Of a stretch of DNA of 64,000 nt, positions 21,099 through 41,822 are shown one piece after another. The stretch lies in the IMG/VR virus record IMGVR_UViG_3300042922_000295, positions 20,498-84,497 of that record. One strand, written 5' to 3'. Source of the stretch: a virus. The notes below the pieces were generated by a model. It had not been told where the DNA came from and did not search any database. It worked only from the letters and a program-made list of their open reading frames with translations. The translations under genes and the position numbers were made by a program. Each line of letters begins with the position of its first letter. The first letter of the stretch is position 1.

Positions 21099-21403
21099 TG
21101 CTGACGGTGTCGGTCAAGGTCAATGACCTCGAAGTCGCCATCGTGGAAATCAAGAACGTCCAGACGAACGAGGACGGGACTGCTAACTACGTAGCGACCT
21201 TCGAGGTTGACCGGATGGGTGCGCGAGGCCGACACCGTCGCAGGCTGTTCGGATTCCCGCGCACGCAGTACAACGCACTTGGGCTACTCAAGTTGGCCCT
21301 GGATTCACTCGACCCGAGAGACTTGGAGCTCGAAACCGATGGGACTGGTACATCAGATCTGGCACGGCGACAGCGTGGAGCTGGCCCAGCGCTTCCACGC
21401 TAA
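21098..21403 (+). CDS. Hypothetical protein, 101 aa
   Basis: TGATG coupling. Confidence 0.75.
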   Translation: MLTVSVKVNDLEVAIVEIKNVQTNEDGTANYVATFEVDRMGARGRHRRRLFGFPRTQYNALGLLKLALDSLDPRDLELETDGTGTSDLARRQRGAGPALPR

Positions 21404-22067
21404 GCGTCGCATCCAGAGCGTCATCACCGACCCGCCCTTCGGCGTGGACAACCTGTCGAACATGGCGACGACGCAGGCTGGCAAGGAGTATGCCCGCAAG
21501 ATCGCCAACGACGAGTCCCCCGAGGTGGCGATCAAGGTCTTCCGTGACGTCATGGAGTCCGTCATCCCCGGGATGAAGGAGGAGTCGGACATCTACATCT
21601 TCACGGCGCACCAGGTGCTGGAGGAGTGGCTGGTGTTCACCCGGGACCTCCTGGAGCCGCACGGCTTCCGCCGCAAGGCGATCCTCGTGTGGGAGAAGGA
21701 TGGCCCCGGCATGGGCGACCTCAACTCGTGGGGCATGGGCTGCGAGTTCGTCCTGTACTACAAGCGGGGCAACCGCGAGAAGTCGGACAAGCGCCGGAAC
21801 AACGTCCTGCACCTCCCGCAGCTCAGGCCGAACGAGCTCATCCACCCGCACGAGAAGCCGGAGCAGTTGCTGGAGTTGCTCCTGAAGCACTCGACGGACC
21901 CGGGCGACTTCGTCATCGACCCGTTCGGTGGTAGCGGCAGCCTCGTGCGCGCCGCTCGCCGGTGCGGCCGGTCGGCGGTCGCCATCGAGCTGGACGAGAA
22001 GAACTACGAACTCGCCAGCAAGAAGCTCAACGAGGGCGACGGCGGAGGCTTCGACTTCGGAGTGTGA
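21339..22067 (+). CDS. Orphan N6-adenine/N4-cytosine DNA methyltransferase (beta class)
   Basis: TDPPF (motif IV) precedes HPHEKP and DPFGGSGS (motif I). Confidence 0.93.
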   Translation: MGLVHQIWHGDSVELAQRFHAKRRIQSVITDPPFGVDNLSNMATTQAGKEYARKIANDESPEVAIKVFRDVMESVIPGMKEESDIYIFTAHQVLEEWLVFTRDLLEPHGFRRKAILVWEKDGPGMGDLNSWGMGCEFVLYYKRGNREKSDKRRNNVLHLPQLRPNELIHPHEKPEQLLELLLKHSTDPGDFVIDPFGGSGSLVRAARRCGRSAVAIELDEKNYELASKKLNEGDGGGFDFGV

Positions 22068-22080
22068 TCGACCTGCCAGG

Positions 22081-22140
22081 CGGGGGCGGCGTATCCGGTA
22101 GTGCACGCACTATCACGCCGCCCCCGCTTTCGGCTACCAT
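22081..22140 (+). promoter_or_regulatory. Inverted repeat followed by -10 TACCAT
   Basis: CGGGGGCGGCGT / ACGCCGCCCCCG with inner TAGTGC/GCACTA; TACCAT at 22135-22140. Confidence 0.5.
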
Positions 22141-22177
22141 GACACCACCCGAAGCCCCGACCCAGCAGGAGGCACCA

Positions 22178-22531
22178 GTGAGTACGACCGAAGGCCAGGA
22201 GGTGCGGGAAGTCCACCCGTTCTCCATGGACAGGATCAGCCCTGTCATGAGCTTCGCCCCCGTCCCCGAAGTCGAGGCGGAGGTCCCAAAAGAAGAATCT
22301 GCACCGGAGCCTGCTCCCGTGCCCGATCCGACGCCGACGACTCCGGACCCGGAGAAGAAGGACCCGGAGGACGACCCGCTCAAGGACGTGAAGGTGAGCG
22401 AGGGGGAGGCTTCGAAGAAGTCTGGGGAATCGACCTCGTCCCCCACGCCGCCCACGACCCCCGCACCCCCGGCGAAGCCTGCGACTGCGGCGAAGGTGTC
22501 GAAGAGCGACTCGCCGACTTCTTCCAAGTAG
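22178..22531 (+). CDS. Pro-rich hypothetical protein, 117 aa (zero frame of candidate frameshift)
   Basis: AGGAGG RBS, GTG start. Confidence 0.75.
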   Translation: MSTTEGQEVREVHPFSMDRISPVMSFAPVPEVEAEVPKEESAPEPAPVPDPTPTTPDPEKKDPEDDPLKDVKVSEGEASKKSGESTSSPTPPTTPAPPAKPATAAKVSKSDSPTSSK

Positions 22532-22752
22532 ACACGTCATGGCAGGAGCGCGGAGCATGCTTCGGCCGGGCTCCTGCCAAGCGTGGCGAGCCTGACCCCT
22601 TCTTCCCGGAGAAGGGGTCTATCGCCTTGGCGAACAAGGCAATCAAGGAGTATTGCATGGTCTGCCCCGTGCGCAAGCTGTGCAAGCAGTACCAAGAAGA
22701 GACTGGCTCCGTCGGAGTATGGGGCGGGCAGTACATCGGTCGAGATTCCTGA
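22291..22752 (+). CDS. whiB: WhiB-family transcription factor domain (no in-frame start; probable -1 frameshift product)
   Basis: WQERGAC...DPFFP...CMVCPVRKLC...GVWGG at 22540-22752; absent from the ORF track. Confidence 0.88.
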   Translation, partial: RRICTGACSRARSDADDSGPGEEGPGGRPAQGREGERGGGFEEVWGIDLVPHAAHDPRTPGEACDCGEGVEERLADFFQVDTSWQERGACFGRAPAKRGEPDPFFPEKGSIALANKAIKEYCMVCPVRKLCKQYQEETGSVGVWGGQYIGRDS

Positions 22753-22763
22753 AGGGAACAACA

Positions 22764-23084
22764 GTGAACGTCCACAAGGTCACCATCTACACGGACCCCG
22801 AGACCGGCAAGCTCAGGTGGCGCTTCGTCCGCAAGGATGGGTCGATCCTCGCGGAGAGCACCAAGGTGTACGACACCCGCGAAGAGCTCATGGAGGACAT
22901 GCAGATCGTCGTCGGCCTGTGGTTCGCCTTCGACGAGCACATGCCGGACCGCGTCAAGCAGGTCAGCCTCCACCGGAGCGAGCCGGTCGGCCTGGAGCTG
23001 CCTCAGCCGCAGGTCACCCCGGCCGAGCCCGAGGAGTCCGGCGAGGTCATCGGCGACCCCGACACCGAGGTCGAGCAGCCGTGA
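22764..23084 (+). CDS. DUF1508/YegP-like domain protein
   Basis: IYTD..GKLRWRFVRKDGSILAES..Y. Confidence 0.7.
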   Translation: MNVHKVTIYTDPETGKLRWRFVRKDGSILAESTKVYDTREELMEDMQIVVGLWFAFDEHMPDRVKQVSLHRSEPVGLELPQPQVTPAEPEESGEVIGDPDTEVEQP

Positions 23085-24304
23085 GGCCCAAGTCTCTGTC
23101 GGCATCAGCGCTGCAGGTTGCAGCGCTGTGCCTCTCTCGGTACAACGCGGAGAACATCAACTACTCACGCGGCGCGTCCAACGAGGCGGCTCTCACCGGA
23201 ACGTCGGCGCACGGCGCACTGGAGTTGTACGTCCAGAAGGTGTACCTGGAGAAGTCGATGGAGCCGAGCGTCGAGCTGCTCCTGGAGTTCTTCAAGCTGT
23301 CGTACGTCAAGACGTTCGGCAACTCGGACTTCCGCTCGAAGAACTACAAGGACGGCGTGAAGATGCTCACGGCGTGGTTCGAGCGTACGTCGTTCGAGGG
23401 CTTCGAGGTCATCAGTACGGAGAAGAAGAAGAACTTCCCCATCCCCGTGATGATCGACGGAGTCAAGGACTCCATCCCGTTCAACTATGTTCTCGACCGG
23501 TTCGATCGCCTCGGCGAGACGAAGTACCGAGTCGTGGACTACAAGACGAACATCATGCCGCTCTCGCCGTCCGACCTGCGCGACAAGCCGCAGGCTCGCT
23601 GCTACGCACTCGCCATGCAGATCGAGCACAAGGATGCCACCCAGATCTGGGTCGAGTTCGACATGCTTCGTCACGACGGCCCCGTGGGTGTGACCTACAC
23701 CCGCGAGGACAACGTCGAGACGTGGAAGTGGATCAAGGCCGAGGCGCAGCGCATCATCGACACGCCCACGACCAAGATCGACAAGCAGACGGGCGAGGAG
23801 GTTCCGGCCAAGCTGCCCGAGACGCTCAACCCGGAGTGCAACTTCTGCATCCGCAAGACCACGTGCGAGACGGTCACCCGGAACATCGAGAACGGCGGCG
23901 TCCTGAGTCTCGGGATGCCGGGGATCGCTGACCGCCGCGCCGCGCTGGAGAACCAGAAGAAGGCGGCGGCGGCTGCCATCGAGGAGATCGACCGCGTCCT
24001 CCTGGCCGAGGCCAAGGTTGCCGACGTCGACCTCATCCCGGGAGACGACTACGACCTCGCGGTCGGCGTCTCGAAGCGTCGGGGCGTGGACGCGGAACGT
24101 CTCGTCATGGTACTGGCGGACAGCCCGAACCTGATCCGCAAGTACACCGGCGGCGCGTCCATCACGATGCGTGACTACGACGCCCTGCTGTCCGACCCCG
24201 AGCTCACCGAGGATCAGCGGCGGCACGTGTCAGGGCTGGTTTCGACCCGCTACGGGGAGCCGAGCATCCGAGTCAAGAAGAAGCCGACGATCCGCTCGAA
24301 GTAG
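23081..24304 (+). CDS. Cas4/RecB-like PD-(D/E)XK exonuclease
   Basis: LSAS...C, GTSAH, DRFD...VVDYKT, QxxxY, CNFC...C. Confidence 0.92.
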   Translation: MRPKSLSASALQVAALCLSRYNAENINYSRGASNEAALTGTSAHGALELYVQKVYLEKSMEPSVELLLEFFKLSYVKTFGNSDFRSKNYKDGVKMLTAWFERTSFEGFEVISTEKKKNFPIPVMIDGVKDSIPFNYVLDRFDRLGETKYRVVDYKTNIMPLSPSDLRDKPQARCYALAMQIEHKDATQIWVEFDMLRHDGPVGVTYTREDNVETWKWIKAEAQRIIDTPTTKIDKQTGEEVPAKLPETLNPECNFCIRKTTCETVTRNIENGGVLSLGMPGIADRRAALENQKKAAAAAIEEIDRVLLAEAKVADVDLIPGDDYDLAVGVSKRRGVDAERLVMVLADSPNLIRKYTGGASITMRDYDALLSDPELTEDQRRHVSGLVSTRYGEPSIRVKKKPTIRSK

Positions 24305-41019: not shown

Positions 41020-41822
41020 CTATCGGCGGCGTCCGCCAGCAACTCGACCTGCTCCCTTGCCGCTCGATTGCTTTTTGCGATCGAGCTCTCGCTTCCGCTC
41101 TTGCTCGGCTTCGTGCTCGCCGCGCTTAGCGAAGATGTAGCGAAAGTCTTCCAGGAGCTTCGGGTGTTGATCGTACAGCCCACCCTCCACCGGGAGGTGG
41201 TTCCACTTCATCGACTCGCACAGTGCGAACAGGCGGATCGACTCGGCAGGGTTCGGTACGGACTCACCCTTGATGAACAGGTCTACTTGCTGGTGGAAGA
41301 GCCTTCCCCCGCCTCGCGCTCCTCGGCCTCCTTGATGAGCTTGTCGAGCTCGTCACGCTGCTCGTACAGCTCCTTGGCCGACAGCTCCGCCGTGAGCCAG
41401 GGGTTGGCCTTGCGGATCGCGACCTCGATCTTCTCGATGATCGCGGGGTTGGCGTCGCGCAGGAACTCGCGACGCGTCTGCGCGTTGAAGGGGACGTCCT
41501 CCAGGGGGCCGTCCGCGCTGCGGCGGCGCTTGAGGTTCCAGCCGACGAGGCTCGTCTCGATGAGCGCGTGGCGCTCCGAGGCCGGGTCCATCCGGGTGCG
41601 GGCGTCGCCGCCGCGCTGGATGACGAGGTCGCGCTGGGTGTCGCGCTGGAAGCGCGCCTTCTGGCCCTCGTTCATGATGGCGTACTCGACGTACGACACC
41701 TTGTCGGGGAAGAGGAAGCGCTCGGTGCCGCCGAAGCCGAAGTAGTCCATCTGCGGCTGCTGGAACGAGTCCGGCGCGGCGTCGACGGGCTGGGGGGTGT
41801 ACTGCGTGGAAGTCTCGGACAT
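41020..41822 (-). CDS. Tail assembly chaperone pair (G 41283-41822; GT via -1 frameshift to 41020)
   Basis: In-frame G GGG GAA at 41310-41304; the -1 frame is open to 41020, just upstream of the tape measure gene. Confidence 0.9.

Follow-up and report, generated by a model that had tools for sequence, protein, structure and literature searches.

The window analysed here (64,000 nt; bases 20498-84497 of the 84.5-kb IMG/VR virus record IMGVR_UViG_3300042922_000295) encodes a WhiB protein that is very probably made by programmed -1 ribosomal frameshifting, the reading that best accommodates the frames of the locus and their conservation in related phages. The record comes from an uncultivated soil virus and is rated complete by CheckV; the GC content of the window is 64%. 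The WhiB domain has no start codon of its own and would be reached from a short upstream open reading frame (ORF) through a slippery heptamer, C CCA AAA, which is followed in the -1 frame by a conserved four-cysteine extension.

Reading frames and slippery heptamer of the WhiB locus

The locus belongs to an early/DNA-metabolism block, with a DNA methylase on one side and a Cas4-like nuclease on the other. The first gene in this order encodes an N6/N4 (N6_N4) DNA methylase (21207-22067) and is separated by a gap of 110 nt from the upstream ORF of the WhiB locus, which lies on the plus strand with all its elements. The gap contains a very stable hairpin (22075-22134, plus strand; -45.4 kcal/mol, z = -6.7 relative to shuffled sequences) followed by CUUUCGG. 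A simple terminator scan did not call this hairpin; it may act as a terminator poor in U, or as a structure for regulation or processing that isolates the frameshift cassette as its own unit. On the other side of WhiB, a 106-codon ORF (22764-23084, plus strand) without a Pfam match precedes the PD-(D/E)XK (Cas4-like) nuclease gene. In relatives, the position of this ORF is taken by zero to four small unnamed genes.

The frame that encodes WhiB is free of stops from 22102 until a TGA at 22750-22752 closes it. Canonical start codons in this frame are limited to TTG 22627, ATG 22657 and GTG 22669, all 3' of the first cysteine of the WhiB core (22558), and even the first of them, TTG 22627, is 23 codons past that cysteine. 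An earlier sequence-only reading of this DNA had claimed that no ATG, GTG or TTG precedes the first cluster cysteine in this frame, and the window bears this out. The ATG at 22539 was considered as a WhiB start and rejected; it is in the third frame and opens an ORF of only 18 codons.

Overlapping the WhiB frame is an upstream ORF of 117 codons (22178-22531), which runs from a GTG at 22178 to a TAG at 22529-22531 and has an AGGAGG ribosome-binding site (RBS; 22165-22170) 7 nt 5' of the start, as had been described. Because this ORF is one frame ahead of WhiB, a -1 shift is required to join the two. The heptamer C CCA AAA (22285-22291) has the form X XXY YYZ in the 0 frame, where CCA and AAA are codons, and both tRNAs could re-pair in the -1 frame. 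It occurs once in the 64-kb window when both strands are searched. The earlier claim that it is composed of rare codons holds: across 41 ORFs of the window, CCA makes up 3.4% of proline codons and AAA 1.1% of lysine codons (8/739). The codon UUA, relevant to the heptamer variant of some relatives, is found twice among 17,497 codons, or 0.2% of leucine codons in this phage. The G-rich stretch noticed directly 5' of the heptamer is likewise present, as GAGGCGGAGG at 22274-22283, and resembles a Shine-Dalgarno (SD) sequence, making it a candidate frameshift stimulator. The first two codons after the presumed slip (22291-22296) are AGA AGA, and AGA accounts for 0.9% of arginine codons in this phage; the pair could be a by-product of the 0-frame GAA GAA, or could slow ribosomes just past the shift.

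The -1 frame portion of the predicted fusion (22291-22752) comprises 153 codons and the TGA, and reads RRICTGAC, then CDCGEG, then the WhiB core. A first pair of cysteines, in C-T-G-A-C (C-x3-C), is encoded at 22300-22314, and a second pair, in C-D-C-G-E-G, at 22480-22497. The core (22540-22749) begins with a tryptophan at 22540, and has cysteines at 22558, 22654, 22663 and 22681 and a G-V-W-G-G turn.

The record derives from a metagenome, and the split frames could be the product of a sequencing or assembly indel in an ordinary WhiB gene. We regard this as barely credible. Logan assemblies of two soil-metagenome runs span 21900-23100 in single contigs (74.8 kb at depth 57 and 11.4 kb at depth 1514) with no gaps and 0-1 mismatches, a result that by itself excludes only an assembler artefact, since the two runs may be the source samples of this record and are then non-independent. 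Sequencing error is ruled out altogether because 25 relatives, each sequenced independently, show this architecture as well.

Conservation of the heptamer and the -1 frame in related phages

A tblastn search with the WhiB frame matched 117 phage records (105 from Gordonia, 6 from Rhodococcus and 6 from Tsukamurella), and in most rows among the matches listed the match spans two annotated genes. A tblastn search with the 0-frame ORF gave no match, and the methylase gene was the sole match when 21200-23200 was compared with phages by megablast. Scanning IMG/VR with a single sequence recovered one locus; an alignment-based scan was needed for the rest. We read 14 loci from GenBank (L001-L014) and 14 from IMG/VR (L017-L030), which represent 25 distinct phages (L001-L014, L017, L019-L023, L025 and L027-L030). 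These cover the genera Woesvirus, Montyvirus, Gamtrevirus, Orchidvirus, Gordtnkvirus, Getseptimavirus, Tinduovirus, Gorjumvirus and Demosthenesvirus, as well as several unclassified Rhodococcus phages and one further uncultivated contig, L030.

All 25 distinct loci have a common anatomy: a short upstream ORF with a heptamer, then an extension in the -1 frame, then the WhiB core. The heptamer is CCCAAAA or CCCTTTA and in every case occupies one and the same position of the alignment, in the 0-frame X XXY YYZ register, so that heptamer, phase and -1 protein are all kept. The sequence-only reading had named conservation of the heptamer and of both frames as a check, and had taken a homologue with a normal start and no heptamer as a case against it; no such homologue was found within the clade examined. 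Exchange of AAA for TTT in the heptamer replaces lysine by phenylalanine in the -1 frame and Pro-Lys by Pro-Leu in the 0 frame and retains the slippery pattern. That the residues change but the slippery pattern stays is as predicted by selection on tRNA re-pairing. Counting the tblastn matches, the arrangement appears as a family trait with more than 100 related phage records, an observation that goes beyond the earlier reading.

The stretch between heptamer and WhiB core is a conserved four-cysteine module and not a spacer, which the earlier reading had not recognised. Right behind the heptamer, the -1 frame of the related loci encodes R-x-x-C-(T/S/N)-G-(I/V/A)-C. This is followed by a linker of highly variable length (roughly 12 to over 100 residues), by C-x-C-G-(E/H)-G and, after about 15 further residues, by the WhiB core. 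L030 deviates, with C-x2-C and C-x-C-P-G in place of C-x3-C and C-x-C-G-E-G. In this divergent locus (1072-1497 of L030, IMGVR_UViG_3300020034_000007) CCCAAAA is immediately preceded by a TGA, and the conserved tryptophan immediately followed by an ATG. Within an alignment of 15 sequences (A1), the four extension cysteines, the four core cysteines, the tryptophan and the motifs D.FF, CPV and G.W.G are invariant. In A1, the invariant positions of the extension include C6, G8 and C10 of the first pair and C66, C68, G69 and G71 of the second, and those of the core C92, C124, C127, C133, G144, W146 and G148 (C ... C-x2-C-x5-C; G-[VI]-W-[GA]-G).

WhiB could alternatively initiate at a non-canonical codon of its own, for example ATC 22429, the similarity of the -1 frame further upstream being incidental. 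Non-AUG starts exist, and in some relatives an ATG or GTG stands in frame near the conserved tryptophan, either just before it (GMA3, GordTnk2, Jumbo) or just after it (ReqiDocB7, Perlina, Niagara, Trogglehumper). One gene caller also chose an internal GTG in a Kampe-type sequence (P0005). We nevertheless find such a start very unlikely. The first cysteine pair, which is invariant, would be missing from its product, as would CxCGEG in most lineages; a start at ATC 22429, a case that had been named as refuting the frameshift, would lose the pair at 22300-22314. No candidate codon or RBS is conserved across lineages, and conservation of the -1 frame begins exactly at the heptamer. Moreover, GMA3, Jumbo, Kampe, GordTnk2/Gmala1 and L030, which represent at least four lineages, have a stop codon of the -1 frame no more than one codon 5' of the heptamer, so no initiation could supply the conserved extension in those lineages. 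Lineages with an ATG or GTG near the tryptophan might also, or instead, make a stand-alone WhiB.

The phase of substitutions supports the frameshift reading. We counted differences between related phages by codon phase and used the frequencies qualitatively, as the pairs are phylogenetically non-independent: in the 90 nt before the heptamer they are 0.39 at 0-frame position 3 (-1 frame position 1), 0.17 at -1 frame position 2 (0-frame position 1) and 0.17 at -1 frame position 3 (0-frame position 2). The corresponding values are 0.17, 0.16 and 0.23 in the overlap, from the heptamer to the 0-frame stop, and 0.12, 0.11 and 0.33 past that stop. The heptamer thus marks the point where the substitution phase passes from the 0 frame to the -1 frame. 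Loss of the 0-frame peak within the overlap, where the -1 frame wobble position is highest, indicates purifying selection on the -1 frame from the heptamer on. The flat profile of the overlap allows for some constraint on the 0-frame tail too.

Conservation at the nucleotide level is found at the CDCGEG site (22480-22497) relative to L001 and L002. The sequence GAAGCCTGCGACTGCGG(C/A)GAAGG, at 22474-22497 of the window and 1494-1517 of L001, is nearly identical between this phage and Woes-type phages; such near-identity, with no megablast match around it, fits a double coding constraint at CxCGEG.

These patterns also bear on whether the WhiB frame is a decaying or unexpressed remnant, or whether only the annotated stub of 33-41 aa is made. 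The frame does lack a start, and GenBank annotators have accepted stubs, but the four cluster cysteines, the tryptophan, DP.FFP, CPV and G(I/V)W(G/A)G are kept across genera and substitutions fall mainly at third positions of the -1 frame. A stub would miss at least the first cluster cysteine, and the 33-aa stubs miss two; the core of a homologue is also predicted with confidence to fold as WhiB. A remnant or stub is therefore highly improbable.

The 66 other phage WhiB loci retrieved in the same IMG/VR scan served as a control. They have ordinary starts 1-20 aa before W..C, and neither the four-cysteine extension (0/66) nor a heptamer upstream of the WhiB core (0/66) is found among them; in one, L078, CCCAAAA occurs inside the ORF, after W..C. 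We also looked for an ordinarily encoded version of the extended protein. A word-limited search of 5.8 billion protein clusters with the extension, covering proteins of 85-272 aa only, returned no extension-plus-WhiB protein encoded in the ordinary way. When 1.84 billion representatives were searched with an HMM, 35,749 WhiB proteins were obtained, and among the best 150 of these none that reaches into the extension had it whole in a normally called ORF. Two candidates were set aside: in P0011 a stretch HCPCQRC is unrelated to the extension, and P0005 is the internal-GTG call mentioned above. Within the reach of these searches, the extension-plus-WhiB protein is encoded only behind a slippery site.

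Predicted products and mechanism of the probable frameshift

The fusion of 191 aa predicted by the sequence-only reading gains support from the comparative data. It would begin with 38 residues read in the 0 frame, continue with the four-cysteine module and its Gly/Glu/Arg-rich linker of 55 residues, and end in the WhiB core, with the junction at EVPK/RRICTG. The 117-aa product of the upstream ORF has its first 38 codons (to 22291) in common with the fusion, and its remainder is a low-complexity tail rich in P/E/T/S/K. The upstream 0-frame ORF has no Pfam or PHROG match. Its N-terminal segment aligns with the upstream genes of related phages, and in most lineages contains the motifs (N/H)P(V/I/F) and DF(R/T/S)P(K/R). 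The upstream 0-frame gene is called an 'endonuclease' in several RefSeq records (Sombrero, Jellybones, Monty, Adgers, Flakey and GMA7) and in phrog_6890 (1184-1606 of L001 and relatives). This label may be a propagated guess, because the version in the window lacks any Pfam or PHROG match and looks largely disordered.

The WhiB domain had been described as intact, with four cysteines and GVWGG, and its match to PF02467 (Whib) agrees: residues 86-148 of the -1 product score 38.8 bits, relative to a cut-off of 23.6. This is the sole Pfam match in the -1 product, and a PF02467 search of the whole genome gave one match, at 40 bits. The PDB profile matches of the core are WhiB, WhiB1, WhiB3, WhiB4 and WhiB7. 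An AlphaFold2 model of the -1 product of the window, from an alignment of 14 sequences, was uninformative (pLDDT 38.6). For the Woes homologue (L017), which is 49% identical to the window product, an alignment of 107 sequences gave a model with a pLDDT of 90-95 in the core, which superimposes at 1.2-1.4 A over 64 residues on WhiB1 in complex with SigA region 4 (6ono_A). By homology, a [4Fe-4S] cluster is expected in the fusion, as is binding to region 4 of the principal sigma factor of the host.

The extension is modelled with a pLDDT of about 60 in the Woes homologue, and has no match in Pfam, PHROGs, the PDB profile search or the ESM Atlas. It is probably a metal-binding module, because its four invariant cysteines stand in two pairs.

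In the mechanism we propose, ribosomes would initiate at GTG 22178 and read 38 codons. At C CCA AAA a fraction would move back by one base; the tRNA-Pro in the P site would then pair with CCC in place of CCA, and the tRNA-Lys in the A site again with AAA. Slipped ribosomes would then read AGA at 22291 and go on in the -1 frame to the TGA at 22750, whereas those that do not slip would make the 117-aa protein with the common N-terminus and a disordered P/E/T/S-rich tail. As both products would come from one start, their ratio would be set by the efficiency of the slip. What the data show is the arrangement of the frames, its conservation and the switch in substitution phase; the slip and its efficiency are inferred, and WhiB dosage may be controlled by the frameshift, as had been suggested. 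The short product could compete with the fusion for whatever the common N-terminal segment binds, as OrfA does with OrfAB in IS3-family elements.

The same fusion would result if RNA polymerase slipped at the A or T run of the heptamer, since transcripts with a one-base deletion or a two-base insertion would put WhiB in frame, and homopolymer runs are present. However, these runs are just A4 or T3, and the runs known to give productive transcriptional slippage are of about 6 or more (reviewed in PMC5009743). The conserved feature is a phase-locked X XXY YYZ pattern that includes CCC, which is relevant to re-pairing of tRNAs and not to a polymerase. For these two reasons we give transcriptional slippage no more than a slim chance.

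Slippage of the ribosome may be stimulated by the SD-like G-rich element 5' of the heptamer and by the rarity of the A-site codon. That codon is AAA here and UUA in the CCCTTTA lineages, and a pause at such a 'hungry' codon may add to the slip. Both C_CC.A_AA.A and C_CC.U_UU.A shift at >0.1% without a stimulator in E. coli, where V_VV.A_AA.R is among the most efficient frameshift classes (PMC4066793). The best anti-SD duplex of the element in the window is -8.9 kcal/mol. In the 19 nt 5' of the heptamer, anti-SD pairing averages -8.1 kcal/mol relative to a background of about -3.3 kcal/mol and is enriched at 16/16 loci, every one of which ranks in the top 19% of the background (median top 4%), an enrichment that is partly confounded by conserved 0-frame Glu, Asp or Gly codons. 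Folding of the 60 nt that follow the heptamer revealed neither a shared nor a significant RNA hairpin across the 16 loci (z from -2.1 to +1.3).

The A-site codons of both heptamers are among the rarest in these high-GC hosts, and for this reason we also considered that the device could be a translational sensor and not a fixed-ratio splitter. The slip, and with it the amount of a dual-metal WhiB fusion that combines the four-cysteine module and [4Fe-4S], would then depend on how much tRNA-Lys(UUU) or tRNA-Leu(UAA) is available or on the translation state of the host, with the non-shifted product competing with the fusion. We consider such a sensor rather unlikely.

Known frameshift systems and implications

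The tail assembly chaperones G/GT of lambda and other tailed phages are made by a programmed -1 frameshift (Levin 1993; Xu, Hendrix & Duda 2004, as cited in PMC5009743). The WhiB device would resemble G/GT as a phage -1 slip at X XXY YYZ that yields, at a fixed ratio, a pair of proteins alike in their N-terminus, and as an arrangement conserved by position rather than sequence across many phages. Unlike G/GT, the WhiB locus is between the N6_N4 DNA methylase and the PD-(D/E)XK nuclease and not in the tail module, and its predicted products are a regulator fusion and a disordered protein without chaperone homology. The slip would also come early, at codon 38 of 117, which leaves a long overlap. 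In the same window, the likely tail assembly chaperone ORF (41283-41822, minus strand; GC3 0.97) contains no in-phase XXXYYYZ heptamer; a tail-chaperone frameshift of this phage, if present, uses another type of site or another location.

In OrfA/OrfAB of the IS3 family (IS911, IS150, IS3), frameshifting produces the transposase (PMC4066793). The WhiB locus has in common with these elements a functional domain without its own start, reached solely by a -1 slip from a short upstream ORF, and a short product that has the N-terminus of the fusion and could modulate it. In contrast to IS3-family elements, the WhiB fusion has no transposase or helix-turn-helix (HTH) domain, and no DDE transposase is found in the -1 product. 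The usual site of insertion sequences is A AAA AAG/A, accompanied by a 3' hairpin or pseudoknot, whereas the WhiB locus uses C CCA AAA or C CCU UUA with no 3' structure detected. The WhiB device belongs to neither the G/GT nor the IS3 OrfA/OrfAB family.

Frameshifting in E. coli dnaX (tau/gamma) is stimulated by an internal SD-like element 5' of the heptamer and also by a strong 3' hairpin (reviewed in PMC5009743). An SD-like element 5' of the heptamer is likewise present at the WhiB loci (16/16), but is nearer to the heptamer in some lineages, including the window. Slippage truncates the dnaX protein, while at the WhiB locus it would extend the product into a new domain.

Conventional phage WhiB genes exist, for example that of mycobacteriophage TM4. 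The WhiB of the frameshift loci has the same WhiB-like (Wbl) core, with four cysteines, the GVWGG turn and a PF02467 match, and differs from the 66 conventional IMG/VR phage WhiB loci in the features for which these served as a control: their own starts, and the lack of an extension and of an upstream heptamer.

GenBank annotations of the frameshift loci are of three kinds. A 33-aa 'WhiB' stub is annotated in MrWormie, RemRem and BenoitCattle. An internal ATG or GTG near the conserved tryptophan is used in GMA3, GordTnk2, Jumbo, Mbo2, ReqiDocB7, Perlina, Niagara and Trogglehumper, and no gene at all is annotated here in Kampe, GMA7 and TIN2. If the slip does occur, this gene would be mis-annotated in over 100 deposited phage genomes, as a 33-aa stub, with an internal start or not at all, and its true product would combine an unrecognised invariant four-cysteine module with a Wbl domain.

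Well-supported programmed frameshifts in bacteria and DNA phages are few beyond tail chaperones, IS elements and dnaX. We found no description of a frameshift-made WhiB in a full-text literature search, a result that is not proof of absence as subscription journals are largely outside its reach, and a large 2016 review of recoding does not mention WhiB. Searches of the literature with the heptamer strings gave no relevant match, and no programmed frameshift that makes a transcription regulator was found in the literature searched.

The cultured relatives Woes, Monty and GMA3, which grow on Gordonia, make the frameshift directly testable. A real slip would provide a compact natural -1 signal for Actinobacteria, composed of a heptamer and a 5' SD-like element with no evident 3' structure, which would be useful for recoding studies in mycobacteria and their relatives. 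For the phages themselves, the fusion would be an early regulator, probably aimed at the principal sigma factor of the host.
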